Of a stretch of DNA of 64,000 bases, positions 20,223 through 61,645 are shown in pieces. Position numbers and translations under genes: made by a program. How positions within the stretch are numbered: position 1 is the stretch's first letter; every line of letters starts with the position of its first letter. The notes beneath the pieces were generated by a model. The model was not told where the DNA came from, did not search any database, and saw only the letters and a list, made by a program, of their open reading frames with translations. The DNA is from a virus (Duplodnaviria; Caudoviricetes): IMG/VR virus record IMGVR_UViG_3300033121_001357, positions 30,494 through 94,493 of that record. One strand, given 5' to 3'.

Positions 20223-20737
20223 TAGACGAGATGCTCCGTGTATTCGATCTCAAGGGCAAAGTTTAAGTCGCCTTGTGGGCACCCTCGAGTACAGGAGACT
20301 CTTACCCAAAATGGATAGTACTTTGTATCCGCATGTCCCGCGGAGCCAAGTTCTGGCAGTCGCGTGTCAATTGCACCACCCACCAAGGGTGACTGTAGAA
20401 CAGCACAGTCGTTGGGATCTAGAGGATCGTCTCCCGAACCCGGACCGTTAGGGGCAACAGAAGCCCAGCGATTCTCAGCAGGCTCCTTGTCTCCAGACAG
20501 AAGCTTAATGCTTACAGCAGTACTCGTAATCGCAGCTCCGATAGTCGACGTAGGTCGGAGACGGATATCTGTGTAGTACTTCGTTGCATCTGTATTGCGG
20601 ATATACACCTTCTTCGTAACTGGAGAGCCACCGGGACTTGTTGCCAAAAGAACTGGAGCAGCAAATGTCACGGAGGAAATCTCGTCGAATGTTGCGGTGC
20701 TTTCATTGAGGATATAAAGCTTAATCATTCGGTTCAC
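20222..20737 (-). CDS. Hypothetical protein (possibly structural)
   Basis: Packed ORF in the operon. Confidence 0.6.
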   Translation of the reverse strand: MNRMIKLYILNESTATFDEISSVTFAAPVLLATSPGGSPVTKKVYIRNTDATKYYTDIRLRPTSTIGAAITSTAVSIKLLSGDKEPAENRWASVAPNGPGSGDDPLDPNDCAVLQSPLVGGAIDTRLPELGSAGHADTKYYPFWVRVSCTRGCPQGDLNFALEIEYTEHLV

Positions 20738-22719
20738 CTGAATGCAGAGCGTTTGATTGGGGCTCTTGAATTTCTCTTCTTATAGTCGATATGTCTGGAT
20801 CTGCTTTGGTCCGGAATGTGTGTAACACGTGTGACCTGCTGACCAGCAATCGTGTCCGATTCTACTACAACTCTTGTGGGTATGAAATTCAGTTCTCTTT
20901 CTTTATATGCCTCAATCTGTGTCTGTATATCTTTTTTCTCCCCCGTCCTGGATACCGGCCTATTACTCCGATCTGTAGGGATAGAGATATTCTTAGAAAT
21001 ATCTACTGCAATCTCACCAGGCATGCCAGTGAATCTAATTGCCATTAGAGGAGCTGGAGTACCTAGCTTTGAGAACTCCATCGTAAAAGCAAAAAGACCT
21101 AGCATGAATGCATCGAGTCGGTGGTCCTCGATATCATCATTAATCATTGCATAGGTAGGTTGGGCGCCTGCCTTAGAGATCTTCTCGATAATGTAACCAC
21201 GTAGAGCTCTAATTAGGTTGCCGTCATACTTTGACAGACCGATTTGTCCAGACTCAAAGATACGTACAGCATTCTCAACCACAGCAGGCTTTGCATACTG
21301 CTTAATGATTGAGCCGTTTGTTGGGTGGCGCATCTCTATCTTGCTACCAAAGTCGATGGCCTTGATGATGGACTGTAGTCTCTTGTCTGCGGTATTAGGA
21401 GCAGACTTAGTGCCGAAGTCCTGAAGCATCTCAATCTGTACCGAACCCGCTCCCCTGTCCACATAGATCCAAGCAGGGTTCCACTTCCTATTAAGTCTAA
21501 TGATTTCGTTGATAGCCTGGATCTGCGTGTTACCTTCACGATAGACCTGACCTACATCGTAAACCTTATACACAGGATGCGGCTGAGTGGGATCTGCTCC
21601 GATAACGACAACTTCGGTACCGTGAACCGGATTCCAGTCTACTCCAAAACAGTAGATGAAACTGGGGTCAGGCTCACTATCCTCATATTTATAAGTGCCA
21701 TCAGCAAGTGCAGCATCAATGTGTGTATGCTGGAATACACCTTCTTCAATTTCACCATACTCTGCAAGGATCTCGTGCAGGTACTTAACGCCTGGATTTA
21801 GCATGCGCTGTTCGAACTCCATATCCTCGTCCCAGTTAGGACGACACATTGATGGATAGTGGAATGATCTGAAGCAAGGGTCGTGATCCCACTTGTAGAA
21901 CTGTTCATGAGCACCGCTTGGTGTAGAAGCTGCAAGTAGAATGGTATCTTTGTGTTCAGAAAGGATTGCTACGATAGCAGAAAGATCATTGGAAGTAAGA
22001 TAGTCTGCCTCATCGATGATGATCATATCTGCGGCCTGACCGCGGATAGACTCATTTCCAGAAACGAATCCAACCATATAGGATCCGTTTGTAAGTTCAA
22101 TCCGTCTCTGTGGGCTTTTTACGTATCTGGAGCAGCACTCCTTTAGTGAAGGTGAGTGTTCAATAAAGTCGTTGATCTGATCGAATAAAAGATCCAGCTG
22201 TGAGATATTCGGAGTGATAACAAGAACTCTATAGTTCTTGTTTGTAATCATCTTATGTAGGACTTTTGCACCAATGGTCCAGGACTTTCCAGAACGACGA
22301 CCTAGTCTGTATAGCTGCCTATTCGCCGTACACTTTACCATTAGCTCCTGATAGAAGTTTGCCGTCTCGTCAAGATTGTATCTCTCAATATTTACAGGAT
22401 TGGCCCTCTGTGGAATCCAAGGACCTCTCTCACTGCTCTCTTTATTAAAGACAGTGATATTCTTTTTGGCCCATAGAACCGGATCTGCAACGGAGGCAAA
22501 GAGCTCTGCATCAGCAGCAAGCTGAGGGAGATTTGCCTCCTCAAGCATTTCGCGGACACTGGCCACAGAATCCGCCGGGATTCCCTTACACTTAATAGCA
22601 AAGTCTCCCTTCCTCGCTACTATTCTTCCTGTCTCTGGATCGATTACATCCTGTGGAGCCCTATTACGAAGCTTACAATCAATACAACCAGGATGTAGAT
22701 TCGACTCTGCTATTTCCAT
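20734..22719 (-). CDS. terL: Terminase large subunit
   Basis: Walker A GRRSGKS, Walker B IIIDEAD, ASTP coupling motif, RNase H-like GVDWN..YVDRG..DHRLDA. Confidence 0.92.
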   Translation of the reverse strand: MEIAESNLHPGCIDCKLRNRAPQDVIDPETGRIVARKGDFAIKCKGIPADSVASVREMLEEANLPQLAADAELFASVADPVLWAKKNITVFNKESSERGPWIPQRANPVNIERYNLDETANFYQELMVKCTANRQLYRLGRRSGKSWTIGAKVLHKMITNKNYRVLVITPNISQLDLLFDQINDFIEHSPSLKECCSRYVKSPQRRIELTNGSYMVGFVSGNESIRGQAADMIIIDEADYLTSNDLSAIVAILSEHKDTILLAASTPSGAHEQFYKWDHDPCFRSFHYPSMCRPNWDEDMEFEQRMLNPGVKYLHEILAEYGEIEEGVFQHTHIDAALADGTYKYEDSEPDPSFIYCFGVDWNPVHGTEVVVIGADPTQPHPVYKVYDVGQVYREGNTQIQAINEIIRLNRKWNPAWIYVDRGAGSVQIEMLQDFGTKSAPNTADKRLQSIIKAIDFGSKIEMRHPTNGSIIKQYAKPAVVENAVRIFESGQIGLSKYDGNLIRALRGYIIEKISKAGAQPTYAMINDDIEDHRLDAFMLGLFAFTMEFSKLGTPAPLMAIRFTGMPGEIAVDISKNISIPTDRSNRPVSRTGEKKDIQTQIEAYKERELNFIPTRVVVESDTIAGQQVTRVTHIPDQSRSRHIDYKKRNSRAPIKRSAFR

Positions 22720-22727
22720 AAATCACC

Positions 22728-23456
22728 TTAATCGCTAAACGGATTCAAGAAGCTTACTGCGGCAAGACCTGCCTTTAGGGCAAGACCACCTGCAGCAAAA
22801 CGGGCAGCACCAACACCGAGTCTCTTCATGCCTGCATTCTTTGCACCAGCGAAGTCAGAAGCACCAAGCCAGCCTAGAAGACCGTAGCCCGCATTACCCA
22901 TCTTGCGCATTAAGGGGTTCGAACTATCTAGTCTTTTTGCAAGGAAGCCTGAGATTCCATTTCCAATCTTCTTGGGATCTGCAGCCCTTGCTGCAAGACT
23001 TTTCTGCAGAGAGGCTCGCCATGAATTAACTTCTGCACCCCACTCAGGATAGTCTATTTTGCCTAGTGCCCGGAATCTTGAAGCAGTAGGACCTAGACTA
23101 GATCCAGAGGGTAGGCCTAAGATGTTTCTTGCTTCCATCCAACCACCCCTCCAAGCATTCCCTCCGCCACTTGCTTCTAGACTACTCTTAGCCTGATTAT
23201 AGTATTTCCTGGCTTGAACCTTAGCCCAAGGTAGCCCCGTATTCTTTCCATAGTTATAGCCTGCCTTAGCCTGGTCTCTGCTCCAGCGGGCAAGAGCTCT
23301 AGTGTCGGAACCAAGCTCTGTCTTGTTGTACTTAATGGCACCCGCTCTGATTACACCATAACCAAGAGCCGCACCACCAGCATACAGGCCAACACGTCCC
23401 CAGTTAACGCCGGGACGCTCATTGTATCCATCATTTAGTCGGTTGTAACCCGCCAT
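22728..23456 (-). CDS. Gly/Ala-rich basic protein with hydrophobic segments (possible internal virion/ejection protein)
   Basis: Composition; N- and C-terminal hydrophobic stretches. Confidence 0.45.
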   Translation of the reverse strand: MAGYNRLNDGYNERPGVNWGRVGLYAGGAALGYGVIRAGAIKYNKTELGSDTRALARWSRDQAKAGYNYGKNTGLPWAKVQARKYYNQAKSSLEASGGGNAWRGGWMEARNILGLPSGSSLGPTASRFRALGKIDYPEWGAEVNSWRASLQKSLAARAADPKKIGNGISGFLAKRLDSSNPLMRKMGNAGYGLLGWLGASDFAGAKNAGMKRLGVGAARFAAGGLALKAGLAAVSFLNPFSD

Positions 23457-23847
23457 TTATCATAACCTCCGGTTTTGTCGTCATCCTTCTAGTATTCAAG
23501 ATAACGATCCTACTGAATATATAACTGAAGAAGTGCTCTTTCCCGGTGACTATATTCTGATGACACTCCTTACAAAGTGTAATTCCATTCTCTTCTACAA
23601 GGGTCAATTCTGGGAATCTCTTCTTTGGTCTAATATGGTGAGCCTCCAGTGCTCCTCCCTTCTGACCACACATCTGACATTGATATAAGTCTCTCTTGAG
23701 TACGAAGTCTCTCCACGCCTTATAGGCAGGAGTTCCGTATAGAGCCTTAGCTACTTCATATGTTAGAGGGACAAGGCCCTGAAGGCCTGTCCTCCTTGGT
23801 CTAGATACGAGCTTCTTAGAACGCTTCTTCTTACTTGGCTTTCTCAT
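23431..23847 (-). CDS. HNH endonuclease
   Basis: RDLYQCQMCG..LEAHHIRP..NGITLCKECH. Confidence 0.88.
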   Translation of the reverse strand: MRKPSKKKRSKKLVSRPRRTGLQGLVPLTYEVAKALYGTPAYKAWRDFVLKRDLYQCQMCGQKGGALEAHHIRPKKRFPELTLVEENGITLCKECHQNIVTGKEHFFSYIFSRIVILNTRRMTTKPEVMINGGLQPTK

Positions 23848-24447: not shown

Positions 24448-25053
24448 TTAGTTCTCGATAGCTTCATCCTCTTTCCAAATAATCCCATCCAATATACGAC
24501 CGATTGTAGATCTGGATACGCCGTATAGCTCTGCTAACCTTGTCCTTTCACCGCGCTCTCCAGTGCCAGATGCTCTTATCTCTCTTACAATCTTCCATGT
24601 AAGTTTGGCAAGATTATGCATTTCACCTCGTCTCTTTTTGCTCATTTTCTGCTTTGACTCTTCTCTATGTTTATAACCTAGAAGTCCATTTGGCTTGCCC
24701 TTTCTCGTGAGACTCTGTCTTATTCTTGCTTCTGTGGACTTCTTCGAGCCTAAAGAGCTTCCTGCTTTCGGACAAATATTGTATCCAAATTTTGGATCTG
24801 CACTCTTGAATAGGTCAATGAAATATTGCTCTCTTTCTATCAGGAACTCTTTGTTTTCAACAAATTCAAGAACTCCAAAATGGAAGTTCTCTATTCCTCG
24901 AATATTTACCGCTCTTTGTAGGTAGAGATTATGGTGTTACTGTTTATTGAGTGAGCTTTTATGTGTTCTCCACCTACCCATAAGGTTAATGGCAGACCCA
25001 ATGTACACCTTATCTGTATTTAGATCTAAAATGTAATAAATACCACTAGCCAT
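24448..25053 (-). pseudogene. GIY-YIG homing endonuclease with NUMOD3-like and HTH tail, interrupted by one in-frame TAA
   Basis: MASGIYYILDLNTDKVYIGSA..RWRTH..KQ*HHNLYLQRA..EREQYFID..GYNICPKAG..KHREESKQKMS..HTH; stop at 24937-24939. Confidence 0.88.
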
Positions 25054-25981
25054 GGTATGCAAGAGCCTCTGAACCGAAAGCAGATCGACAATTCATTTGC
25101 GAGCGATAAATAGACTGTACTGCTCTCTGCCTCATTGTTGCTGCTTGTTCTGAATCCAAGAATGTAGACCTAAATGGCTTTGAGTGGCGTCCATATTTAA
25201 GGCCCCAGTCTGATAGGGCATGGACTCCTTCAATGGCTTTAGTGGCCAAAATTGCTCCACCAAATGCCATACCCAAGAACCCTACACCAGCAGCAACTGT
25301 ACCAATGGCAGTACCAGGGGCGAGTGAGGAGCCTATCGCGGCACCTACGGCACCACCACCCACGAAGCCAATTTCAGAAGCTACTGACTGTGCAAGCATC
25401 GGAGCAAGGCCGGTCTTTGGATCCATTAAGTTATCGCCACTTGTTAGGGCTGCGAAACCGGCATGAAGACCCCACGCTAGAGGTGAGAGTACAGAGAACT
25501 TAGCGAAGTTGCTAGCACCCTTACGCAGATGCTGTGCTGGAGTTCTCATCCCAAACTTACGAGCACCAAGATTGCCAAATTCATCAATCTGACGGCCGTA
25601 CTTATTGGCGATACGTCCAGCAGTATCTCTCTCTGCAATCGGGACCCCTTCTCTGTAGTATTTGTCCGCAAGTCGCTGATTCTTTCTTAGTTCTGTGGCG
25701 AGATTCCCTCTCCAATTTAGATACCCATCTGTTAGATGTAGGGGAGCCATAGCGGCCCCTCTCAAGATACTCCTAGAATTCACAGCGGCATTGGCCATGC
25801 CACTTAGAGCAAGTGCAGTCACCTGTCTGGTACCTTGAAGGGCATGGAAGATAGTCTGGCCAGCCATTGTATCGGGCGCCTGTCCATACCCAAATAGACC
25901 TCTACTAAGACCCTGCCAGATTCCTCTTTGGGTCTGACTATGCTTTGCCCACCTATCTCTAAGTCTTTCGTAAGGAGTCAT
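25046..25981 (-). CDS. Glycine-zipper membrane-type protein (possible ejection protein)
   Basis: GGGAVGAAIGSSLAPGTAIGTVAAGVGFLGMAFGGAILA. Confidence 0.5.
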   Translation of the reverse strand: MTPYERLRDRWAKHSQTQRGIWQGLSRGLFGYGQAPDTMAGQTIFHALQGTRQVTALALSGMANAAVNSRSILRGAAMAPLHLTDGYLNWRGNLATELRKNQRLADKYYREGVPIAERDTAGRIANKYGRQIDEFGNLGARKFGMRTPAQHLRKGASNFAKFSVLSPLAWGLHAGFAALTSGDNLMDPKTGLAPMLAQSVASEIGFVGGGAVGAAIGSSLAPGTAIGTVAAGVGFLGMAFGGAILATKAIEGVHALSDWGLKYGRHSKPFRSTFLDSEQAATMRQRAVQSIYRSQMNCRSAFGSEALAYHG

Positions 25982-25984
25982 GCC

Positions 25985-28900
25985 TTAACCTCTATGGTGT
26001 CCTATTACATTGTATCTATTCATATTTCTACGCATCTGACTAACTGCCGCTCTATGTCCTGACATTAAGGAAGACTTGGCATTTAGGTTTGTGGGCGTAC
26101 GCGGAATCTTGTTCCTATCAATGACATATCCGGAACCAAAATCCTTGATATTGGCTTCACGACTAGCGCCAATCCAACCATGTTTCATGCCCTCAATTGT
26201 ATTGAAGTCGTCTTTTCCACCAGCAGCTTGCATATCAGAGAATTCTGCATCTGGATTCCTCATTCTATTTAGGATTGCAGCGGTTTTGAAGTCTCTGAAC
26301 AAGCGTCCTAGATCTGTATAGCTAGTATTAGTAATACGACGCTTGCTGTTCATCTGCATCTCTCTAGAGATCTGCCAGGCTTCTTCGTTCCACATACCAC
26401 GTTGAGCGGCAAGAGCTTCTTGCTCTGCTCTATTAAAATCTGTGGCGTTTACGATCTGGTCCTTTCTCTTACCAAAGGGCAGAGAGGCTGCTGCACCTGC
26501 TTCAACTAACTGAAGGTTGATGTTGGTGTTGTTGTCACCCAAAAGGACACCGGCTGTACGACCATAAGAGGAGCTGCCATCTGGATTATAGGCTAGACGT
26601 AGCTGCTCCTGCCTTGCAAGGATCTGCTCTAGCTTTGCCTTGGCCTCTTGACCGTAGGGCTGATTTGGCCAGATTCTTCCAGGCTGATTCTCGTGTTCAA
26701 TTTCAGGGGCGTCAATGCCAGCAAGACGGACAGTCATCTCTCGTCCACCTCGCAGAGTCACGTTTACGGTGTCAGCGTCTTCTACAGAGTAATCTGTAAT
26801 CGTTGAATCCTGGATGTCGCTACCCTGGAAGCCCATATTGAGTCCTTCAAATGGATCCTTCAAGGTATGTGAGCGGGCGATGTGTCTGGAGTACTGCTCA
26901 AGACCTTCCTGGAGGATGTCTTCAGCGAAAATCCTCATACCCTGCCATGGAGAGCCGAAGCCATAGTGCTTACGCATTCGGGCCCCAATACCCTTACGTC
27001 CAGTCAGAGGAGACTCCTCCTGCATACCCATAATGCTGTTTCCATGGATGTTTGTTGGGATGCGGAACCCACTTCGACGACTGCTTCGTCTAATCCCGTT
27101 ATCACCCCCTTGATCCATGGATGTGATTCTAGCGAACTGCTCAAGACCTTCCTGAGAGATATCTTCAAAGAAAGGACGGAGTCCCTGGATGTCCTGAGAC
27201 GACATGCCTTGCCATGGAGAACCGAAGCCGAAAAACTTTCTAAGCTTCGCACCTATACCCTTCTTACCAGAGATAGGCGATTCCTCTTGCATACCAGGAA
27301 TGACGTTAGCTTCTACGTTGGATTGGATTCGATTTTGAGCTTCAGCGGCCTGCTTTCGCAGGATTGCTGCTTGCGCTCGCTGTTCTATTGCGATCTTTCT
27401 AGCTCGTGCTGGAGTTATACCTAGCTCACCACGGGCATCCATGCTCCTGAGTAACTGGCCAATTGAATCATTGGCCAAGGACTCTGGATAATGTTCATAC
27501 TGGGTCTTGTGAGCGCTAAATTCTTCGAACCATTGATGAGACCTTTCTGAGTATCCACTTTTTGCAAATGCTTCCTTTGCCTCTTCACTTAAAGACCCAG
27601 TCCTACCACTAAGCGAGTTGCCGGCATGTTTCTGGTGATCTCTCTCATGCTTGATTGCTCCTCTAAGTACCTGTCCTGGATCTAGGTTATGCTCTTTAGC
27701 ATAGTCCTTTGCCGCCCTTGAGTTAATAAAGACAGGCCTTAAGCCCTTAGATTCTGCATCTGCAACTTGCTTAAGAAATGCCTCTTTCTCGCTAGCGAGC
27801 CCTTCGATATCCTTTGCATATTCAAGCCACTCTCCCTCTTCGCCTTCAGCACTCCATCTCTTATACCGATCTATTTTTGATTCCTGTTCCGCAAAGAATT
27901 GTTCCCAGCCCTTCACGGTATTGAAATCGGGGGCCCTCTCATGCATGAACTTTATTTCATTGGCTAGGGCATCAGACCATGGCACACCCCGTGCTTCGCA
28001 CGCCTTTTCGGCAACCGAGGCCACCTCTTCCAGACTGTTTTTTACATACACGAATCCAACTGCTCCAGTTTCACGACCCATGACTTTAGAAAGAGCCCCT
28101 TCGCCAAAACTGATTATGCCCCTCCAACCTGAACCGAAGTCAGTATTGTACTTACGCGAAGCTCCCGAGATACCTGCGTGCTTCATACCTTCGATATAGT
28201 TGTAGTCATCATCATTAGAACTAATGAGATTTGCGGCAAAGAGGGCACCAGCGCCCACTAAACCAATCTTCCAGTTCTCTCTGAGGAAGTTCTTAAACTT
28301 AGACCCCATTGAGGCTTCAGCAACTTCAGGAGCTGCACCAGAAGGAACAAGCCGAGGACTAAGCTCCTGTGCTAGAGATTCCATCTTAGGAGCATGCGTA
28401 CTAAGCGCATGTTCTAGAGCCTCTGCCCGAGTTGCCCCTCCTGCTACCTTGGCCTTTACAGACTCCTCAAAGGCATCGATGTAGCGGGTCCTAGCTTCTG
28501 CGAGGGCAGCATCATAGTCAACCTTGACTCCAATACCGCTACGAGCCTCTCGGGCAGCCCTGGCCCTAACCACCTTCTCGATATCCGTAGAGAACTCATG
28601 CGGATTCATTCTGGGATCTGCCTTTGTTCTAAGGAAGAACTGTAGCTTCCTACGGCTATACGTTCCGGTGTTATCGTCTAGGACTTCTACTGGAAGGCTT
28701 AAGGTTCTATTAGAATGTCTTACACGAGCCCCCTTTAATAGCTCATAATCAGGCTTGCCCTGTGCCTTGGAGAGAAGGAATTTCTGCTGATTCGTATATG
28801 TATCAATGATGTTCTTTACAGTATTCCTTCTCTTAATCTCCGGAAGGTCCTTACCAAGATCCCCAAAGAATCTCTGCATATGCTCTGGCAGAGCTTCTCC

Positions 28901-29824
28901 CTTCTGCATCGCATAACCAGCTCCGGCTAGATCTCTAACCATCTGCCCCTGGAGAACGTTGTCAGCAAGTGCTGTATGCAACTCATTCTCGCCATACATC
29001 AAGTTGGCATAGGTATTTACGCTGGTTCCTGTAAAGATTTCTCCTGTCTTAGGCATATACCCACGGTTCTGAGCCATGGCAAATACAGACTTTGACAAGT
29101 CCATAATGTCAAATACTCGAGTACCGTTGAAGGACCTTTCAAGCTCTGGAGCGAATCCCTTGGTAAAGACTTCTTCCCAGGCATTAAGGTGCGTATCTAA
29201 TGTCCCCAGTGCTGTAGCTCTAGATGCCCTACCAAGAGTCTGCTTGAGTTCCAGGGGAGTGGTGTAGAGGCCACCTCCAGGAGTTGGAGATCCTCTCGTG
29301 AAACTCTGTAGTCGATTCTTGACGCCCCAGTTCTCAAAGTGCTGTGCGCCTATACGCTCATTAATAAATGAGCGTTCGTGTTGCAGGTTCTGCACCCAGA
29401 CATCGCGATTCCCGAGCTGTGAGAGGGCCTTATAGCCTGCTTGCTTCTGGGTGGTACTGGCGTTATGGAGCACGTCCATAAATGGCCCAGAAAGGTCCCC
29501 AGAGGCCTGCAATGCGGCCTCTCTCTTTGCGATTAGGTCACGGGTAAATGGAGAGATCTCACCAGTTCGCTTTCCGCCGATGACAGTTGGCTTTACGAAT
29601 TCGTGAGTGAAGGTAGACTTGGGCCCGATGCCATGCATGAAGCCCATTTCGTAGATAGGAGAGGAGGGATGAAGGCCACCAGTCTCAATATCAAAGATGG
29701 TTGCTCTAGAAGCAATCTTTGACAGTTGCTCTTCAACTCCTGTAGAGAATGATTGAGTGCCATTAAGAAGTCTGTCTCTATACTCCTTAGCTAATTCAAT
29801 TTCTCTCCAGGAGCCGTATGACAT
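25985..29824 (-). CDS. Polyvalent protein: DEDDh exonuclease-like, HExxH peptidase-like and SNase/thermonuclease domains separated by repeats
   Basis: FDIETGGL..HTALAD; KHERDH..EEFSA; DADTV..VRLAGIDAPE..QPYGQEA..YGRT. Confidence 0.75.
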   Translation of the reverse strand: MSYGSWREIELAKEYRDRLLNGTQSFSTGVEEQLSKIASRATIFDIETGGLHPSSPIYEMGFMHGIGPKSTFTHEFVKPTVIGGKRTGEISPFTRDLIAKREAALQASGDLSGPFMDVLHNASTTQKQAGYKALSQLGNRDVWVQNLQHERSFINERIGAQHFENWGVKNRLQSFTRGSPTPGGGLYTTPLELKQTLGRASRATALGTLDTHLNAWEEVFTKGFAPELERSFNGTRVFDIMDLSKSVFAMAQNRGYMPKTGEIFTGTSVNTYANLMYGENELHTALADNVLQGQMVRDLAGAGYAMQKGEALPEHMQRFFGDLGKDLPEIKRRNTVKNIIDTYTNQQKFLLSKAQGKPDYELLKGARVRHSNRTLSLPVEVLDDNTGTYSRRKLQFFLRTKADPRMNPHEFSTDIEKVVRARAAREARSGIGVKVDYDAALAEARTRYIDAFEESVKAKVAGGATRAEALEHALSTHAPKMESLAQELSPRLVPSGAAPEVAEASMGSKFKNFLRENWKIGLVGAGALFAANLISSNDDDYNYIEGMKHAGISGASRKYNTDFGSGWRGIISFGEGALSKVMGRETGAVGFVYVKNSLEEVASVAEKACEARGVPWSDALANEIKFMHERAPDFNTVKGWEQFFAEQESKIDRYKRWSAEGEEGEWLEYAKDIEGLASEKEAFLKQVADAESKGLRPVFINSRAAKDYAKEHNLDPGQVLRGAIKHERDHQKHAGNSLSGRTGSLSEEAKEAFAKSGYSERSHQWFEEFSAHKTQYEHYPESLANDSIGQLLRSMDARGELGITPARARKIAIEQRAQAAILRKQAAEAQNRIQSNVEANVIPGMQEESPISGKKGIGAKLRKFFGFGSPWQGMSSQDIQGLRPFFEDISQEGLEQFARITSMDQGGDNGIRRSSRRSGFRIPTNIHGNSIMGMQEESPLTGRKGIGARMRKHYGFGSPWQGMRIFAEDILQEGLEQYSRHIARSHTLKDPFEGLNMGFQGSDIQDSTITDYSVEDADTVNVTLRGGREMTVRLAGIDAPEIEHENQPGRIWPNQPYGQEAKAKLEQILARQEQLRLAYNPDGSSSYGRTAGVLLGDNNTNINLQLVEAGAAASLPFGKRKDQIVNATDFNRAEQEALAAQRGMWNEEAWQISREMQMNSKRRITNTSYTDLGRLFRDFKTAAILNRMRNPDAEFSDMQAAGGKDDFNTIEGMKHGWIGASREANIKDFGSGYVIDRNKIPRTPTNLNAKSSLMSGHRAAVSQMRRNMNRYNVIGHHRG

Positions 29825-29827
29825 AGC

Positions 29828-30661
29828 TTACTTCCCCGCAATCTTTGCTTCGATTTGCTGTAGCTTCTGACGTAGATCCGCTTGTAGATTCGCAGCATCT
29901 ACCTTGTTTGTCTCGTTAAGAGCAGCCTCTCTCTTGTACTGGTCGTATCTTGTAGCTACGAGGTTCTTACGAAGTCTTTCCTTTCTAGTGTAGATCTTCT
30001 CCTTAACCTTCATAGCATCAGCAACATCCTTTACATGTTGCTCTCTTTCACCATTCTCATCATATACGACAGCAACAATCTTATCCTCAGTAAGGTCCTG
30101 ATACTTTGCTGCCAATACTGCGTTCATTCGGTGCTCTAGTACCTCACACTCAGCAAGCTCTAAGATCACTCTTTGATCTGTATAGTTACCGGGATCGTCT
30201 GTAACACCAAACTCTTCCGCATATCTAGCTACCCATTCAAATAGTAACTCTGTCTCTACAGGACAAGTTCTACCAATTGGGACCACGTTCCTCTGTTCAC
30301 CTTCAGCATCTAGTTGCTTTTGTAGTTGTACAAAGGGGCAAGAGGCTGCCATAGGACAGACACTCCCTCCATAACAGATCAGGGGAGTAGAGGAGGTGGC
30401 TCCAATCTTCATTCTGTTCTGTGCTGCGTGAATCTGGCGGGCCTCTTCAGGAGTAAGAAGAATATCGGCATACTTGGCAGGATTGAGATTCAATCCCTTA
30501 AACCAATTATGCCTTACAAGCTTCCCTTCTGTAGTGATAGCAGTTCCATCAAACTTAACCAGAGCAATCTTCTCACCATGGTTCTTATCAATCTTCGCTA
30601 TCTGCTGTGTTGCCGGAGTTCCATCCTCATCAACAGCAACTATAAAGTCTTCTCTTTGCAT
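29828..30661 (-). CDS. Cys-motif hypothetical protein (weak candidate for small terminase)
   Basis: C..CP..CP..CP motif and C-terminal coiled coil; start after AAGGAG. Confidence 0.45.
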   Translation of the reverse strand: MQREDFIVAVDEDGTPATQQIAKIDKNHGEKIALVKFDGTAITTEGKLVRHNWFKGLNLNPAKYADILLTPEEARQIHAAQNRMKIGATSSTPLICYGGSVCPMAASCPFVQLQKQLDAEGEQRNVVPIGRTCPVETELLFEWVARYAEEFGVTDDPGNYTDQRVILELAECEVLEHRMNAVLAAKYQDLTEDKIVAVVYDENGEREQHVKDVADAMKVKEKIYTRKERLRKNLVATRYDQYKREAALNETNKVDAANLQADLRQKLQQIEAKIAGK

Positions 30662-30969
30662 AGCTCCTTCTCTACCTCTTGGACAAGCTCCTTCACCGCA
30701 TCCCAACGATCACCCCTGTTCGTAAGAGAATCCAATAAGGCTCTCTGTACATACTTACAGTCCATAACGTCTTGATGCTCAGTAGCATTAGCCAATCCAA
30801 AGATCCTTTGTACGTATACTCCATTCTCTCCAAGAGCTGTTCTTAACATCTCCAGTAGAGCAATTACCTTAAGAGTCGTATCCAAAGAAACTCCAAGCTT
30901 CTCTTGGCAGAGCTTGTCAAACTCTCTTCTAACTTCTGTCATATTTGTCGTCTCCAGAAAGGACATCAA
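30640..30969 (-). CDS. Hypothetical protein
   Basis: Co-oriented ORF. Confidence 0.55.
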   Translation of the reverse strand: MMSFLETTNMTEVRREFDKLCQEKLGVSLDTTLKVIALLEMLRTALGENGVYVQRIFGLANATEHQDVMDCKYVQRALLDSLTNRGDRWDAVKELVQEVEKELCKEKTL

Positions 30970-37283: not shown

Positions 37284-37512
37284 TCCTGTTCACTGACTGA
37301 GCGGTCGAGGGCTTAGACTCTCGGCCGCTTCCCAGTGCACAGGAGTGCATAGACCTGGCTAAGTCTTAAAACTAGCCTACGGGGGAGGGGGTGCCCTAGA
37401 CACATCCCCTATGCCACACCTGGGCTATCTAATTCAGGTAGCTGACATATACTGCTGCCATGCCATGGGTTGGTATGGGTGTCAGCCAGCAAAACTCCAA
37501 TAGGAGAAACCC

Positions 37513-40500
37513 ATGACCCGTCACGCCGCCGTCATCGCCGCCCTGGTCGCCCACATCAGCGAGCTCGGCGCCCAGGCCCCGACCCACCAGAACAGCCGCA
37601 AGAGCCTGGACGAGATCGCCGAGGCCTTGGGCGTCAAGGTGAAGGGCGCGAAGAAGGGGCCGGACCGGATCGCCACCGAGGCCTGCAACCGGGCCCGGAA
37701 GCTGTCCGAGCTCGACGCCGAGCAGATCGTCGACCACTTCGGCCTCGAGGAGCTGGTCGAGCCGTCCGACGAGAGCCTCGGCAGCGAGGAAGACGTCATC
37801 GACGCGAACACCCACATGGCGGCCAGCCTGGCCGCGAAGGAGGAGGCGATGCGGGAGAAGCAGGTCGCGGAGCAGATCGCGGAGAACGTGATGAGCGCCG
37901 TCGAGAAGACCGACGAGCCCATCACGGAGGAGAAGCGCGAGGAGCACGAGGAGGTGAGTGTGGAGCCGCAGAAGGTGGAGGAGAAGAAGGTGGACGAGCA
38001 GCCCAAGGTCGACAACCCCGAGCCCAAGGTGGAGGAGAAGGTCGAGGAGAAGAAGCCGACCAAGGAGGAGCTCCTCCAGGCCGCCAAGGACTTCGAGCAG
38101 GTCGCGCAGGGCCAGGTGCCCGCCACCGTGCTGAACAGCACGCGGCGCATCGGGCAGTGGACGCTGGAGCTGTTGCCCAAGAACGCGGGCTTCACCATCG
38201 TCAGCTCGAGCCACCAGAAGCGGAACATCTCCGCGACGATGGTCGCGGCCTTCGCCTCGAAGGTCCGGACGATCCCCGTGAATCTGACGGTCGAGAAGTT
38301 CGTCGGTCGGGCGAACGACAAGATCCTCAGCGAGCTGTACAAGTTCAGCATCGACGAGGAGAAGAACATCAAGGCCCGCGGGGAGTTCCTCGCCCGTCTC
38401 GTGAGCATCGAGACCGCGTCCGCGAAGGTCCTGGCCAAGGCCTCGGGCTGGAAGGCCTCGCACCTGCAGGGCGAGCGCCAAAAGATGATGCGGCTCTACG
38501 GCACCGCCAAGGACCGGATCGGAAACTTCAAGGTGGCGCTGGACACGGCGACCACCGGCGATCAGCACGCGGCGAACTTCTACGCCGCGGCCAAGGCGTT
38601 CGGGCTCCTGGAGGAGGGCGCGGACCTCTTCGGGCTGGACATCACCAGCTCGAGCGTCAAGGCGACGATCCCGCAGCCCCCGACGTCGCAGAGCGAGCAG
38701 AAGAAGCCCATCGAGGAGAAGCAGGTCGACAGCAAGTCGACCCCCACCGCGGCCACCGAGCCGCAGCAGGAGAAGCCCGTGACCGAGCGCAAGGCCGGTA
38801 TCATCAGCAGCAAGCTCTACAACGACCGCGTCGAGGTGCTCCGCAAGGAGCACTCGGCCTTCGTCGAGCACAATGAGGAGCGCGAGAAGAAGTTCTGGGC
38901 GGGCTTCGCCGGCCACGTCCAGAAGTTGAACGACCTGCTGTCCCAGCAGGCCACCAAGCACAACGTCCAGGCCGTCAGCAAGCTGATGGCCTCCATCGAG
39001 GACTCCTGTGCGGCCCGCATGGTGCGGATCCAGAAGCAGCAGGAGCAGCAGCAGGACGCGCCCGAGGGCGCCAACCAGCCGACCGATGAGTCGGTGAAGG
39101 AGACCGTCGTGAGCGAGCAGCAGCAGACCACCGAGGCCCCGATCAACACCCAGGATCAGGGGGGCGCGGGCGCGGTCGTCGAGACCAAGACCGAGACGGT
39201 GGTGGAGACCAAGGCCGACGTCAAGACCGAGCAGGCCCCCGAGGCCACGGTCGAGGTCGTGACGGAGGAGACCCCGAAGGAGACCTCGGAGCCCGACGCC
39301 GAGCTGGCGACCGAGGACAAGAAGGACGAGAAGAAGGAGGAGAAGGTGAGCAAGAAGGAGAAGTCCAGCAAGGGCAACTGGACGGTGTGGGGCAAGATCG
39401 TCGCCGCCGCCCTGGCCATGGACAACCGGATCGTCATGTGGGGCGCGCCGCGCAAGGCGCACCGGGACGACTACCAGAAGGCGCTGAGCGCCGTCAAGGC
39501 CTCGATGGAGGGCGCCGAGGACAAGCCGTCCAACGGCAAGAACGTCGGGGCGGTGAAGGCCCTGAACACGTTGCTGTTGGAGACGAACGGTTTGGTGACC
39601 GGCGTGGCCCGCGAGATCGTGGGGGCCCAGACCGTCACCATCGACGGCAAGACGAAGACCATCGCGGAGTGGGAGGGCGGGCAGCTCGAGGCCGTCTTCA
39701 AGAACGGCCACTTGCTGAAGGCGCGCGGCTTCCTGAACCGCAGCAAGCAGGAGATCCTGGCGAAGCCCGAGGCCAAGCAGGCCATCGCCACGAACCTCGC
39801 GGTGAAGCTCACCGAGATGTTGCAGGGGAAGCAGGACCTGCTGCTCCCGGTCCTCGCCCTGGCCTCGTTCTGGATCGGCCGCAGCGTGCCGACCACCGAG
39901 AAGTTCGGTCGGTGGATCAGCCAGCAGGTCGGTGAGATCAAGTCGGACAAGGACTTCGAGTCCTTCGTCTACGACCTGAACAGCCGGCGGAGCCTCGTCG
40001 AGCGCCTCGAGAAGACGGTGCCGAACGAAACCTCCTCGCTCATCGCGGCCAAGGAGAAGCTGGCCGAGATGGAGAAGAAGGCGAACGAGCTGGACGGGGA
40101 TCGCTGCGCCATCGAGCTGAAGATCGACGGGCAGTGGAACCCGGCCCTCTTCAACGAGAAGGACATGGGCCTCTCGTTCGAGGGCCTGCTCAACACCCAC
40201 ATGCAGAAGCTCCTGAACTTCTGCCACAGCGTCCGCACCATCGACGAGAAGGACCCGAAGGTCCTCAACGCCCTGCATATGTGCGGGGTCAGTGGGAAGA
40301 AGGACGAGACCGTCGACATCACCACGATCCAGCACCTGGCCCTGCAGGTGTTCTGGCTGGTGATGGACATGTGCAGCAACAGCCTCGACCAGAGCTGGTT
40401 CGAGGTGCAGTGCGCCCTCCGCAACATGGAGGCGCTCGAGGTCCAGTCCAAGACCCCGAACAAGCGTGGGGTCATCAAGGCCACGGCGTGGTTCATCTAC

Positions 40501-52723: not shown

Positions 52724-52967
52724 GAGGTGAATTGGAGGTCTGGATCTTTGGAATTGTTCTAGACCTCTGGAAGAAATTCATCTCTGGAAGTTCTTCTTCA
52801 GGAGTTTCTTGTGTTCCGAGGAAGATTCATTCTCCATTTTCCTCGGGATGGAGTGAGGGAAGAGTGGAAAGTGGCTATTTCTGTGACTACTTCCAATCCT
52901 TTTCTTGCTTCTATAAAAGGAGATTATGTGTGTGGATAACGGTATCCACACATGAAAGGACAAATCG

Positions 52968-54850: not shown

Positions 54851-56023
54851 ATGTGGGTAGACCTCGACAACATCTCCCGTTCTCGATTCTGGGTCGATGA
54901 GCGGGAGATTCCTGGTGTGGGGACGCTCGTTCTCGTGCGTCCTCAAAAGATTCACTTCAAGTGGGAGGAAGATGAAGTCCATCTCCGCTCACTTCTCTGC
55001 CGACCAGATGGTACTGTGGTCTCTTCCGGCTTCCCGAAGTTCTTTAACTTCGGCGAAAAGCCTGAGCGGGACCAGAAGCTGTCGATGGAGATCGCATCGG
55101 AATGGGTGTTGTTCACCGAGAAGGTGGATGGATCCCTGATTATCCGCGATGTCATCGATGGCGTGGTGGTATGGCGTACCCGAGGAAGTCATGAGCTCGG
55201 AAGCTTCCACGATGGCGTAATGGCCGTTGTGGAGTCGAAGTATCCGAAGCTTCTCGACCCCGAAGTTGGCCTTGGTGGCTCGTACCTCTTTGAGTTCATC
55301 TCCCCTGAACACAAGGTCTGTTTGCTCTATGAGGAGGCTGACCTTCGATTCTTGGCGATGGTGAATCATGGAAGTCAACGGCTGAAGGTCTTCCCCGGCT
55401 TCGAGGAGGATGGCCTTCCTCGTCGACCGCGTTTTTACAACCTCAACGTGAAGAACTCCCATGAACTGGCCACCATGGTGGCTAAGATGCAGGGGGAGGA
55501 AGGCATCGTCGCCTGGACGCTTGGTGAGCAGCCTGGCTGGGAACTGACGAAGTTCAAGAGTCGTCAGTACCTGGCGCTGCACGCCATGAGAAGCACGCTG
55601 AACGAGCCCATGGCTCGTCTGTATTTTTCAGTGCTTCACATCCGGGATGAGGAGACTCTCATCGCTCGCCTGTCTGAGGATGGTGTCGACTGGGAGCTGG
55701 GTCAGATGTGTCTGCCTTGGTTCCAGACGTACCTCGCAGATCGGAAGACGCTCGAGGCCACCTTGCCGAGCATCTATGCTTGCGCTAGCGAGCATGCTAC
55801 CCGGAAGGACCGTGCGCTGGCTCTTCAGAGCTATGCGGCAGCCAACAAGGACAAAGCAGCGTTGCAACTCGGTATGGCATTGGCAGACAACAACACCGGG
55901 CTTGTTCACGAGATTATCTCGGCTAAGCTCTGTGGTAAGCCGCTGTCAGCGTACCGAGAAGCAGCTCAAGGCATTCGTCAGCTCCTTCGTGAGATGACGA
56001 GTAAAATGGGTGATGAGGAGTAG
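54851..56023 (+). CDS. T4 Rnl1-like RNA ligase
   Basis: GFPKFFNFGE, motif I EKVDGSLI, YLFEF, EEGIVA, KFKS..YL. Confidence 0.85.
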   Translation: MWVDLDNISRSRFWVDEREIPGVGTLVLVRPQKIHFKWEEDEVHLRSLLCRPDGTVVSSGFPKFFNFGEKPERDQKLSMEIASEWVLFTEKVDGSLIIRDVIDGVVVWRTRGSHELGSFHDGVMAVVESKYPKLLDPEVGLGGSYLFEFISPEHKVCLLYEEADLRFLAMVNHGSQRLKVFPGFEEDGLPRRPRFYNLNVKNSHELATMVAKMQGEEGIVAWTLGEQPGWELTKFKSRQYLALHAMRSTLNEPMARLYFSVLHIRDEETLIARLSEDGVDWELGQMCLPWFQTYLADRKTLEATLPSIYACASEHATRKDRALALQSYAAANKDKAALQLGMALADNNTGLVHEIISAKLCGKPLSAYREAAQGIRQLLREMTSKMGDEE

Positions 56024-56714: not shown

Positions 56715-56864
56715 TGCGACCTACGCCCCTGAGGATGTCAGGGGAGTCGAGAGAGTGCCCGGCGCGTTCGTGTCCGCCTCTCGGCGTTGCACTTTGTGCA
56801 CAAGACCGGGCGAAACAAAAACCTCCTCGAGCGCCATATGTTGCGCAATGAAGGGAGAACACGC

Positions 56865-59800
56865 ATGAAGCCCATCAGTGGTTTCGGCAGTCACGACAGA
56901 GATGTCGTGACCCTCGACGGTGATGTGGATATCACCATCGCCAGCGGGCAGCACCCGCACACCGCCAACATTCTGTGGCGAGAGGCCGACGTGCAGGGCA
57001 CGCAGCTCCTCGCCTACCGGCCCAGCCATCGGCACAATCTGAGCCGACTGCAGCTGGGCATCAGCACCACGCCCCGCGGGAAGACCTGGCGGCTGGTGCC
57101 CCAGCCCGCTGCCCTCATCATCAACTCCGATGGCAATGTCCTCGTGAGCAGCGAAGCCTATCGGCAGTACGACATGCTCATGAAGAAGGGCGATGTGGTG
57201 GGAGCGGAGCGGCTCTTCAAGAAGGAGCTCCTCCCGACCAAGCTCGAGCTGCTGCGGCAGGAGGCCATCCAGGCCCTTCAGGCCGGCGGCTACGACATCG
57301 CCGAGGCGACCGTGCAGGACACGGTCGCCTTCATGATGAACGACCCCACCGAGTCCGACCGCCTGATGGTCCAGGACCGCGGGCCCGTCATCCTCGACCA
57401 GGACCTCGTCGAGCTCTCGTCCCTCAAGGGCGTCAGTTCGGAGGCCCTGCGGTCGTTCGTGAGCATCATGAAGTACCGGGACCAGAGCGAGGCGGCCGAG
57501 AGGCTCGCTTCGAATCTCGAAGTAGAGTTCCCGGGCATCGACATCGATGCCATCGAAGAGACCCTGGCGCTGCGGTACGTCCGTGACGCCAATCTCGGTG
57601 GGCTCGTCGAGGAGGTTCCGGAGCCCATGCGGAAGACCTTCTGGGGCTTGCCCAAGATCGTCTTCGAGGCCCAGCAGAAGGGAAAGCGTTTCTTCAACTC
57701 CTTGGTGGAGAGGATGGCGCTGACCACCCAAGGGTGCTACATGCTCGCGGTCAACGAGCATGGCGAAGGCAACGACTTCCTTCGCGACCTGGGGTGCCAG
57801 GTCGCGATGTCCTACGACCTCTGCGTCATGGCCATTCGGAAGGAGGAGGAGAACTTCCAGGAGCTCCACGAGAAGTGGCAGCTCCGAGCCGATGCGATGG
57901 GCTCGGCCATCAACCTCGGCGATCTGGTCGGGAGCATCGAGGAGGTCGGTCTGGACGCACGTCCCCGGCCGACCATCAGCCACGATGAGCCCGGTGGTCT
58001 GGCGGACCACGCGACCGAGATGCTGGAGCGGGACCTGCTCCGTCGGGTCACGCCCCGTGATGAGTCGGTCTGGCTCGGCGACACGGAGATGTTCACCGAG
58101 AGCATCCCCTACGTTCGCCACCGCCGGGGCGATGAGCAGACGCTGGCGGGACATCCCGTCGCGTACCTCATCGAACAGGCCATCCAGGCCATGGGGCAGG
58201 ACGCGAATCCGGCCTTCATGACCTTCTTCGACAGCGAGGGGAACGAACACCCCCTGATGGAGTCGGATATCGAGGTGCTTCGGATGAAGCTCCACGAGTC
58301 CTACTTCTTCGACGAGCACGGCGAGCGGATGGTTCGGACCATCACCATGCCGGACGGCCTGACTCATCAGGTCCAGGTGGTGACCATCGATGGCTGCTTG
58401 GCGGACGTCGTCGAGCAGCTCAGTCCGATGGTCAATGGCTGGGCCGACTACCGGGTGATGGTGCATCACGAGCTGCCGTCGTTCGGCTACGTGAAGTGCT
58501 TGGATGCGGGAGACCGCACCATCGTCGGACAGGCATGGGTGCCTCCCTTCATCCCGGCTCGGACGCTCGACCAGGAGCCGGTGTACAAGGCGGGGGATAC
58601 CCTGACCTTCGACACCTTCTTCCAGTACCTGGTGTTCGTGACGCAGCTCACGCGGGTCCCGACCATCAGCCTCGAACAGGGGATGGTGGGCGACAAGGAC
58701 GCCGTGCCGGTCATCAGCGAGATGGGTGAGATGCTCACGATGGGCTACACCTATCGACCGCTGACCGAGGTCTTCCCGATGGTGGCCAACTTCATCTACT
58801 GGGTGGAGGAGGGCGTGCGGCGCGGGCGCGGCTTGGTGCTGCCCGGACTCGATGAGGGTCAGGCCTGCACCGACAAGCACTGGGGTCTCCCGGTCACCCG
58901 CGAGGGTGGCGAGGTGTTTCACACCGCCGGTTCGTTCCGTGACAAGGAGCTGACCGGGGAGCTGGATGACGTGGCGTCGTGGCTGGAGGCCATCACCCAG
59001 GAGCTCCACTCCTACCAGGAGTGGGCGCTGGAGATGGTCCAGAAGGCCAATGCCTGGCGAACGGAGGACTTCTTCAACCTCCTGGACCAGGCATACATGG
59101 AGGTCGCCGCGGACCCGACGGTCGTGGACCGCCGAGACATCGTCGGCGAGTCGGGACAGCGCATGAGCTGGTACTCGGCGCTGTCGATGGCGGCCTGGCA
59201 GGCCGTCATCGGCTTTAGCCTCGACAATGCCGTCCTCCCGTCGCCCGTCCGCAAGACGCGCGGCGCCTGGAACGCCGAAGAGCGGAGGTACGAGAACCAG
59301 TGGGCGGAGAACAACTCCGCTCTCTGGCGCATCATGGGTTACAACCTGAACCCGGACTTCTACCGGGGACCGCAGAGGCTCGTCCAGATGGTCGGGGAAC
59401 GGTGGATGCACCACCACCCCCTGGAAAACACCCTCAGGACGGTCTACGAAGGCACCAGCACCAAGAAGGTGCAGAAGCAGCTCATCACCTACACGGACCG
59501 TGGGAACTTCTCCACGGGCATCGTCGGTGATGCACTGGCCTCCTGGTGGGGCATCTGCATCGGGATGCGCCTCCCCGCGGTGCAGCGAAACATCCTGGGG
59601 ATGACGCTCCCGGAGCTCATCCACGCCTTCCGAAGCGAGACCTGGTCCCGGCACCTGCCGCATCAGCTCTACGCAGCCGCACAGCAGTACCCGCGCCTGA
59701 AGGCGAATCGTCAGTTCCCGAACCTCGAGAGGTTCCTGAACCTGGCATTCCCCGAAAGCCCGCAGTACGAGTCGTTCTGCACGCCGAAGGCGGTGGAAGC

Positions 59801-60014
59801 GAACGGTCACCCGATTCGCTTCTTCAGCGAGGCCAGGACCTTCGAGTACCTGGCGATGCTGAGCACGGTCCCCGAGCTGGCCTTCACGGTCCAGCAGCGG
59901 CTGTGCAGCCCCGAGTCGCTGAACGACACCGACCGGCAGTTCCTCCTGACGCTCGCTGAGCAGAAGGGCAAGGAGCTGGGTCGGGACCTCGTCGACCTCA
60001 TCCTGAGCATCTGA
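56865..60014 (+). CDS. Large hypothetical protein (about 1050 aa)
   Basis: AAGGGAG RBS before ATG 56865; strong GC3 bias; no motif recognised. Confidence 0.75.
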   Translation: MKPISGFGSHDRDVVTLDGDVDITIASGQHPHTANILWREADVQGTQLLAYRPSHRHNLSRLQLGISTTPRGKTWRLVPQPAALIINSDGNVLVSSEAYRQYDMLMKKGDVVGAERLFKKELLPTKLELLRQEAIQALQAGGYDIAEATVQDTVAFMMNDPTESDRLMVQDRGPVILDQDLVELSSLKGVSSEALRSFVSIMKYRDQSEAAERLASNLEVEFPGIDIDAIEETLALRYVRDANLGGLVEEVPEPMRKTFWGLPKIVFEAQQKGKRFFNSLVERMALTTQGCYMLAVNEHGEGNDFLRDLGCQVAMSYDLCVMAIRKEEENFQELHEKWQLRADAMGSAINLGDLVGSIEEVGLDARPRPTISHDEPGGLADHATEMLERDLLRRVTPRDESVWLGDTEMFTESIPYVRHRRGDEQTLAGHPVAYLIEQAIQAMGQDANPAFMTFFDSEGNEHPLMESDIEVLRMKLHESYFFDEHGERMVRTITMPDGLTHQVQVVTIDGCLADVVEQLSPMVNGWADYRVMVHHELPSFGYVKCLDAGDRTIVGQAWVPPFIPARTLDQEPVYKAGDTLTFDTFFQYLVFVTQLTRVPTISLEQGMVGDKDAVPVISEMGEMLTMGYTYRPLTEVFPMVANFIYWVEEGVRRGRGLVLPGLDEGQACTDKHWGLPVTREGGEVFHTAGSFRDKELTGELDDVASWLEAITQELHSYQEWALEMVQKANAWRTEDFFNLLDQAYMEVAADPTVVDRRDIVGESGQRMSWYSALSMAAWQAVIGFSLDNAVLPSPVRKTRGAWNAEERRYENQWAENNSALWRIMGYNLNPDFYRGPQRLVQMVGERWMHHHPLENTLRTVYEGTSTKKVQKQLITYTDRGNFSTGIVGDALASWWGICIGMRLPAVQRNILGMTLPELIHAFRSETWSRHLPHQLYAAAQQYPRLKANRQFPNLERFLNLAFPESPQYESFCTPKAVEANGHPIRFFSEARTFEYLAMLSTVPELAFTVQQRLCSPESLNDTDRQFLLTLAEQKGKELGRDLVDLILSI

Positions 60015-60018
60015 GTCC

Positions 60019-60047
60019 AAGAGAGGAGCCTTAGGGCTCCTCTCTTC
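60019..60047 (+). terminator. Stem-loop after the large ORF (terminator-like)
   Basis: AAGAGAGGAGCC-TTAG-GGCTCCTCTCTT; weak U tract. Confidence 0.5.
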
Positions 60048-61319: not shown

Positions 61320-61407
61320 GGGGATGTGGCGAAATAGGCAAACGCGGTGGTCTCAAACACCACTTGGTCTTAACTGGCCCCTGAGAGTTCGAGTCTCTCC
61401 ATCCCTA
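61320..61407 (+). tRNA. trnL: tRNA-Leu(CAA)
   Basis: Acceptor GGGGATG/CATCCCT, anticodon arm GTGGT-CTCAAAC-ACCAC, long variable arm, T arm GAGAG-TTCGAGT-CTCTC; CCA not encoded. Confidence 0.92.
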
Positions 61408-61544
61408 CTTGGGTCTTTTCTTGCATAGACATGAAAGAATGCAAGTGGTGGAGGTGCCGAGAGGTGCCCTAAATTTCTCCAAATAAGAGGCAGGTGTTCC
61501 TCACTTAAAGTAGCCTGCGCCTACTGGAGAGAAGCGCAGTTTAT

Positions 61545-61630
61545 GCCTTAGCTGACAGTGGCTATGTCAACAGCCTAAGGTGGCTGTGTCTTGACGAAGA
61601 TGTGAATGGTTCGAATCCATTCCTAAGGCA
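61545..61630 (+). tRNA. Non-canonical tRNA-like gene (8-nt anticodon loop)
   Basis: GCCTTAG/CTAAGGC, D stem GACA/TGTC, ACAGC-CTAAGGTG-GCTGT, variable arm, GAATGG-TTCGAAT-CCATTC. Confidence 0.7.
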
Positions 61631-61645
61631 CACCTGGAGAAATAA

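Follow-up and report, generated by a model that had tools for sequence, protein, structure and literature searches.

A conserved 38-residue linker separates exchangeable enzyme cassettes in a modular protein of an uncultured myophage

The window analysed here, to which all coordinates refer, is the whole stretch of 64,000 nucleotides (nt) taken from the IMG/VR record IMGVR_UViG_3300033121_001357, a linear sequence of 94,493 bp with a CheckV completeness of 46%. It derives from an uncultured myophage of roughly 200 kb, whose complete relatives measure 161.8–204 kb. The open reading frame (ORF) at 25985-29824, on the minus strand, has a stop-free translation of 1279 amino acids (aa); its product, indicated below as P0001, belongs to a large family of modular multi-enzyme proteins from uncultured phages. 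A DEDDh exonuclease and a hydrophobic helix are followed by a linker peptide, a cassette with an HExxH..EE motif, a second linker, a 45-aa remnant, a third linker, an SNase nuclease, a fourth linker and a basic tail of 43 aa. The features of the gene are reported in the following lines, in the order of translation.

25985-29824, minus strand: whole gene of P0001, the modular multi-enzyme protein, 1279 aa
28892-29719, minus strand: DEDDh (DnaQ-like) 3'-5' exonuclease domain, aa ~36-311, with D45, E47, D141, H283 and D288
28340-28891, minus strand: extension of the N-terminal cassette, helical/beta, aa ~312-495, confidently modelled, with no fold assigned
28220-28282, minus strand: Gly/Ala-rich hydrophobic helix, aa 515-535, continuing directly into linker copy 1
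28115-28228, minus strand: linker copy 1, canonical, aa 533-570, 68 bits
27335-28114, minus strand: cassette 2, helical, aa 571-830, with HERDH at aa 726-730 (27635-27649) and a conserved EE downstream
27203-27334, minus strand: linker copy 2, FGSPW type with a 7-aa insertion, aa 831-874, 15 bits
27068-27202, minus strand: 45-aa remnant, corresponding to a duplicated start of the SNase cassette
26936-27067, minus strand: linker copy 3, FGSPW type, aa 920-963, 8 bits, missed by the six-frame ORF scan
26231-26935, minus strand: SNase cassette, aa 964-1198, with the Pfam SNase domain at aa 1031-1147 (26384-26734; model confidence, pLDDT, 83-96)
26117-26230, minus strand: linker copy 4, HGW/FGSGY type, aa 1199-1236, 55 bits
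25988-26116, minus strand: 43-aa basic C-terminal tail ending in HHRG, conserved in 36 family members

The four motif copies anticipated by the original prediction are all present within this frame, at aa 542-567, 840-871, 929-960 and 1208-1233 (from 28201, 27307, 27040 and 26203 downwards, respectively), and are not due to chance: the motif profile matches P0001 with E = 8e-35 in a search of 1.84e9 representative proteins. The full linker spans 38 residues, with the consensus KFSGKDDDYNTIEGLRHGGIAGALRKENTDFGSGWQGL (profile of 141 copies, also the source of the bit scores listed above), and is composed of two conserved blocks and an intervening loop tolerating insertions; residues N10, E13, H17, R25, D30, G32 and S33 are invariant or nearly so. 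The two middle copies, described as similar also at the DNA level, are indeed so: within the region from linker 2 to linker 3 (aa 831-963) DNA identity is ~70–77% over roughly 210 nt. The two form a diverged partial tandem duplication of the linker and the start of the SNase cassette. No repeats were found in P0001 beyond the linkers and this partial duplication.

Of the proposed domains, the exonuclease and the SNase are well supported, and the hydrophobic segment is present at aa 515-535. The N-terminal cassette (aa 1-495) is modelled by AlphaFold2 with a pLDDT of ~93 and a predicted TM-score (pTM) of 0.81, and Foldseek reports RNase T, DnaQ and TREX1 as top matches. The exonuclease model aligns with Pol III epsilon (Z 12.2, root mean square deviation 2.9 Å, 163 of 174 residues); ExoI, TREX1, ISG20 and RNase T come next. 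Across relatives, no variation is seen at D45, E47, H283 or D288, and little or none at D141; the D-x-E of motif ExoI, the D of motif ExoII and the H-x4-D of motif ExoIII, placed on an RNase H-like fold, are those of a DEDDh enzyme. PF00929 gives no match on P0001 in the Pfam scan; it is annotated on several other linker-bearing members of the family. The SNase corresponds to PF00565 (E = 3e-18, 66.6 bits, with a cut-off of 21), is also matched by SNase profiles from PDB at 1e-12, and features invariant or nearly invariant catalytic residues among relatives (D1016/D1018, R1033, D1038, E1041, R1089).

The predicted HExxH..E domain is recognisable by its motif. HExxH and an EE about 40 aa downstream are conserved in six cassettes homologous to cassette 2; no match was obtained in Pfam or, by sequence, in PDB, and the pLDDT of the fold model is mostly below 60. 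The cassette is accordingly described, from its motif, as putatively zincin-like. An Atlas lead (0.86) to LPD23 was rejected as unsupported, few features being in common.

A word-indexed search led to 86 large metagenomic proteins, and a hidden Markov model of the linker found 234 copies in 83 of them. Of 194 proteins collected in all, 191 carry the linker. Its 553 copies lie a median of 236 aa apart, about the length of one domain, although tandem copies separated by only 3–50 aa also occur. The exhaustive profile search over the 1.84 billion representative proteins returned 523 proteins at E <= 1e-3, of which 336 reach E <= 1e-10; 2–7 copies are present in each of the best 150 of the 523, and the longest of these 150 proteins measures 2,454 aa. 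In a second search 340 proteins were recovered, whose contigs are up to 208 kb long. The repeat is thus a regular feature of the homologues, whose lack of it had been named as grounds for discarding the prediction.

Outside this family the linker was not encountered. Neither P0001 nor the consensus, when compared by tblastn with 50,697 GenBank phages, found it: only an unrelated SNase match and one chance match were obtained. Two linker patterns gave 157 matches in 185,579 species genomes, none of them confirmed. A set of 75 related IMG/VR loci was collected by using an alignment as query, P0001 alone retrieving none; in their flanks, the linker is present in no ORF other than the P0001 homologue. 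Similarly, no second linker-bearing ORF was found in five relatives searched over their whole sequence, four of them complete, and each of three complete relatives with the linker (161.8–204 kb) has a single such ORF. Within the window, core patterns such as FGS[GPA][WYF] are found in no other ORF of at least 100 aa, and a weak match at 52774-52854 was discarded as a Ser-rich chance match. Literature searches on the linker motif, or on polyvalent proteins bearing an SNase, found nothing relevant.

Cassettes were defined by cutting the 194 collected proteins at the linkers. The 671 resulting cassettes were grouped into 174 sequence families (130 singletons), most of which have no known domain; those that can be named are SNases and truncated kinases. 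Each protein features an N-terminal cassette and one to seven single-domain cassettes of ~150–300 aa each, whose order is shuffled among family members. The domains between repeats, whose invariance would likewise have spoken against the prediction, are therefore highly variable. The kinase-like family has 84 members, which match the Pkinase and ABC1 profiles over their N-terminal half only; the SNase family has 82, found in first, middle or last position. The HExxH cassette is present in only about 8 of the 194 proteins. Two families, with 58 and 69 members, are almost always first and are homologous to each other and to a cassette annotated as RNase T (hhalign 96.6% and 95.9%): 127 of the 194 members therefore start with a DEDDh-type exonuclease or a homologue of it. 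Many of these first cassettes end in a hydrophobic helix.

Pairs of closely related proteins document cassette exchange. P0010 and P0011 are 99.3% identical up to ...TDFGSGWQGL, and 96.8% identical again from TDFGSGWNAL... onward; between these flanks, they contain unrelated cassettes of 201 and 315 aa, each with its own linker. The same pattern is observed for P0017/P0021 (flanks 99.4% and 95.8% identical), P0105/P0108 and P0142/P0173. When breakpoints were mapped at the protein level in these four mosaic pairs, 6 out of 6 were located at FGSGW or FGSPW, at most two residues off. Sequence comparison thus identifies the FGSGW end of the linker as the point of cassette exchange among related phages, and the cassette plus the linker after it as the exchanged unit. 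At one related locus (L004:1583-2461), a GIY-YIG-like homing endonuclease ORF directly follows the stop of the P0001 homologue. After it the 43-aa tail is found a second time, as an orphan; this copy is a displaced 3' end, of the kind left by homing events.

Exchange at the linker agrees with the suggestion that the repeat is a recombination joint; the idea that DNA homology is its purpose is disfavoured. At the invariant F-G-S positions all synonymous codons are in use, among them all four for Gly and both families for Ser; at the DNA level, the 67 linker 18-mers comprise 61 distinct sequences. The linker is conserved as protein, not as DNA, under protein-level selection; since synonymous codons vary freely, recombination is more likely a consequence than the purpose of the conserved peptide. 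In AlphaFold2 models, built from alignments with well-populated linker columns, all four linkers score a pLDDT of 25–48, with no consistent secondary structure, while the adjoining domains score 83–98 in the same runs: the linkers are modelled as unstructured. A hydrophobic helix ending in (L)FSG immediately precedes 42% of the first linkers and 12% of the later ones, compared with 1.7% of random windows.

The peptide is retained also in simpler proteins. A distant and more numerous group of IMG/VR proteins has a single linker: the same N-terminal domain is followed by EGMxExGxAxxLRKxxTDFGSPYQGP, directly before the SNase. The linker, with TDFGSPYQGP next to the SNase, is the best conserved stretch of these relatives, and the single-linker form is probably the basic one. 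A minimal form is found at locus L017 (8920-11149), as a syntenic protein of 459 aa, which starts 16 residues before the linker and runs into the SNase; a homologue of the 292-aa gene flanking the P0001 gene lies directly upstream. Because the linker is here at the N-terminus, before a single cassette, the peptide is kept even where it joins nothing.

The gene is located in a structural block, carried by the minus strand in the first 32,000 nt of the window (GC content ~0.47). In the direction of transcription, the block includes the 292-aa gene, the P0001 gene, a 311-aa gene, a small helix-turn-helix (HTH) gene, a 195-aa gene, an HNH endonuclease, a 242-aa gene, the large terminase (TerL), the portal, the major capsid protein and the tail sheath. 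The P0001 gene begins three bases past the conserved 292-aa gene and ~3 kb upstream of the large terminase. It shares its strand with the TerL, portal and capsid genes, and little space separates it from the adjacent genes. The "virion region" label given to it is positional, reflecting its location upstream of TerL, portal and major capsid protein. The nearest cultured terminases (25–33% identity) are those of the jumbo myoviruses Moorella MTATph1, Bacillus WH1, Bacillus 0305phi8-36 and Acinetobacter ME3. The relevant neighbours are:

29828-30706, minus strand: upstream 292-aa gene, with a Cys cluster and a coiled-coil C-terminus, conserved in 56 of the 75 related loci
25046-25981, minus strand: downstream 311-aa gene, conserved in 20 related loci, whose product has hydrophobic segments of the glycine-zipper type
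20734-22719, minus strand: large terminase, syntenic in 68 of the 75 related loci

In the preferred account, a tentative one and somewhat short of probable, the linker is a peptide recognised during processing or loading, which doubles as a joint for cassette swapping. It would act as a linear tag, read by a single conserved phage factor, most likely as the target of a maturation protease or as a binding site for the head interior. The enzymes would be made late, together with head and packaging proteins. Once loaded in the capsid and cut apart at the tags, they would act in the next host, the two nucleases on DNA, the kinases and the HExxH module on proteins. Recombination between co-infecting phages would swap whole cassettes while leaving the protein unbroken: because every cassette must keep the same tag, any two genes would share a short in-frame joint at cassette borders. 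Both virion packaging of P0001 and cleavage at its linkers are predicted steps of this scheme, in favour of which count the late-operon placement with terminase and portal, the minimal form with an N-terminal tag and the precedent of polyvalent proteins (PMC5512222). Several points weigh against it. Pfam detects no prohead protease of the S77, S78 or ClpP families in the 94-kb record. Moreover, since both the full motif and its core are confined to P0001 among the window ORFs of at least 100 aa, a maturation protease acting also on other head proteins would need another way to recognise these. A stretch of 38 conserved residues far exceeds what a protease site typically needs. The HExxH cassette, which could cut in cis, is found in very few proteins (the 8 or so mentioned above), and the helix frequently preceding the linker could equally point to a membrane role in the infected cell.

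Alternatively, the chain might never be cut, and act or be delivered in one piece, the linkers being flexible docking peptides for a common partner (the inner wall of the capsid, the DNA packaged in it, a membrane or a host factor), which hold the enzymes as beads on a string. Linkers modelled as disordered, yet strongly conserved over 38 residues in two blocks with an insertion-tolerant loop, suit a binding peptide better than a cut site; tandem copies 3–50 aa apart are expected if avidity matters, and the N4 vRNAP is a precedent for a polyvalent protein packaged without processing (PMC5512222). The peptide at the extreme N-terminus of the minimal one-cassette protein is left unexplained, and such a tether is considered unlikely. 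Somewhat less likely still is a use of the protein inside the infected cell, independent of the virion, where the hydrophobic helix and the downstream glycine-zipper protein would anchor to the inner membrane a nuclease/kinase complex for host takeover or exclusion of competing DNA, the linker having a separate role. The enrichment of the helix before first linkers (42% vs 1.7% of random windows), the glycine-zipper segments of the downstream syntenic gene, and the absence of MuF or other packaging-associated domains from P0001 in the Pfam scan all fit such a role; the placement of the gene, on one strand with terminase, portal and capsid genes, tightly packed and syntenic across 68 loci, does not, and ejected internal proteins typically have hydrophobic segments too.

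Cleavage might also be performed by the linker itself, its own Asn, Glu, His, Asp and Ser promoting Asn cyclisation or an N-to-O shift at Gly-Ser. The near invariance of N10, E13, H17, R25, D30, G32 and S33, the confinement of the motif to one gene and the failure to find a separate protease (Pfam S77, S78, ClpP) in the 94-kb record would all be accounted for. No fold is predicted for the 38 residues, however, and they show no Pfam similarity to known autoproteolytic families; moreover, since the flanking cassettes vary, they cannot supply a conserved catalytic scaffold, so that self-cleavage appears improbable. Finally, the repeat might be nothing but DNA homology for shuffling, devoid of any role as a peptide. 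Every mapped breakpoint does fall at a linker, and homing endonuclease genes are found nearby (HNH at 23431-23847; the GIY-YIG-like ORF with the displaced tail copy in L004). But codons are scrambled at invariant residues, with both Ser families in use and 61 of 67 18-mers distinct, and the peptide persists in distant proteins with one linker, as well as at the start of the protein with a single cassette, which has nothing to exchange: codon data and minimal form disfavour a pure DNA joint, which is given very little credence.

The recognition peptide, taken a step further, may be a portable module for loading, release and swapping, cut at each copy by a dedicated phage factor or by the peptide itself; a single late gene would then amount to an exchangeable magazine of preformed enzymes, shot into the next host, the phage counterpart of MARTX and polymorphic toxins. 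This more specific proposal is a possible one, put forward with reserve.

Polyvalent proteins of phages and conjugative elements have been described by Iyer, Burroughs, Anand, de Souza and Aravind in 2017 (PMC5512222), where truncated protein-kinase cassettes are reported and cassette-like recombination is already considered; neither "linker" nor "SNase" occurs in that text. P0001 resembles them in carrying, within one phage polypeptide, several unrelated enzymes directed to nucleic acids or proteins (DEDDh, SNase and the HExxH cassette), in the location of its gene near head and packaging genes, and in the extreme mosaicism of its homologues (174 cassette families in 194 proteins), truncated kinase cassettes included. 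The description of P0001 as polyvalent is thus borne out by architecture and mosaicism, but not by signature domains: MuF, MPTase-PolyVal, LPD, ART and PBECR are all missing in a Pfam scan at E <= 1, which reports only the SNase. Other differences are the 38-aa peptide, which is the same at the borders of all cassettes, and the DEDDh-type cassette, which comes first in 127 of the 194 proteins.

Serial effector domains, unstructured linkers and strain-to-strain swapping of effectors also characterize MARTX toxins, in which cut sites are minimal, the repeat regions at the termini are long and a cysteine protease domain is part of the toxin itself. The phage protein, with its serial enzymes, linkers modelled as unstructured and swapped cassettes, may work in the same way; its family differs in that the conserved element is the 38-aa linker itself. 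No in-cis protease domain of the MARTX type was found in Pfam scans of P0001 and six relatives, and no terminal repeat regions were seen. In polymorphic toxins (CdiA with VENN, Rhs with DPxGL), one motif precedes a single variable domain at the C-terminus, an immunity gene is linked to it, and orphan arrays are present. Common to both systems are a short conserved peptide, at the border of hypervariable domains, as the site of breakpoints (6 out of 6 here) and the displaced 3' end, seen once, as the orphan tail in L004; the phage proteins, in contrast, feature up to seven serial motifs and no immunity genes, and no orphan cassettes were found in the complete relatives searched. MARTX, VENN and DPxGL motifs are to be taken as functional analogies, not as families to which P0001 belongs. 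As for T4, its internal proteins and Alt carry a capsid-targeting N-terminal peptide of ~10 aa, removed at maturation by the prohead protease; the tag is found on separate small proteins and its cut-site motif is common to other head proteins. The minimal form from L017 has the same layout, the linker being N-terminal to the SNase, while the phage linker differs in being 38 aa long, internal, repeated and unique to one gene.

Should the linker be such a recognition peptide, its 38-aa profile would retrieve from metagenomes an entire class of enzymes delivered by phages. Hundreds of proteins and 174 cassette families have already been obtained with it, each cassette being neatly delimited and clonable for tests of host takeover or counter-defence; if load, release and swap were all confirmed, more than 170 largely unknown cargo families would make up a catalogue of candidate enzymes for these functions. 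Whole-domain exchange at a peptide-constrained joint offers jumbo phages a concrete route for rapid effector turnover, and the near-identical phage pairs differing by exactly one cassette document such exchange. The processing of polyvalent phage proteins, too, becomes testable at a defined site.

Some further observations concern the neighbouring genes. The Cys cluster of the 292-aa protein reads CYGGSVCP..SCP...GRTCP; for this protein only weak similarities, to YonG and to Terminase_4 or small terminases, were obtained. The 311-aa protein, whose glycine-zipper segments are long, is encoded 3 nt after the P0001 gene, and its C-terminus, ATMRQR..RSQMNARSA.G.EA..YH, is kept in relatives; a signal shared by this C-terminus and the 43-aa tail of P0001 was also rejected (hhalign probability 0.4%). 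Between the P0001 gene and the terminase lie the HNH endonuclease gene (23431-23847, minus strand) and the small HTH ORF (24448-24645, minus strand), which has a weak match to the HNH family; homing-type endonucleases seem to be common in this interval.

Within the same contig, GC content jumps from ~0.47 in the minus-strand structural part (1-32000) to ~0.60 in a region mostly encoded by the plus strand (32000-60000). The high-GC part includes a T4-type RNA ligase at 54851-56023 and two ORFs of more than 1000 aa, open on both strands and without a family match (37429-41196 and 56721-60020). Within 61320-61631, a tRNA-Leu(CAA) at 61320-61408 is followed, 137 nt on, by a tRNA-like gene, for which ARAGORN reports a four-base anticodon, aagg.

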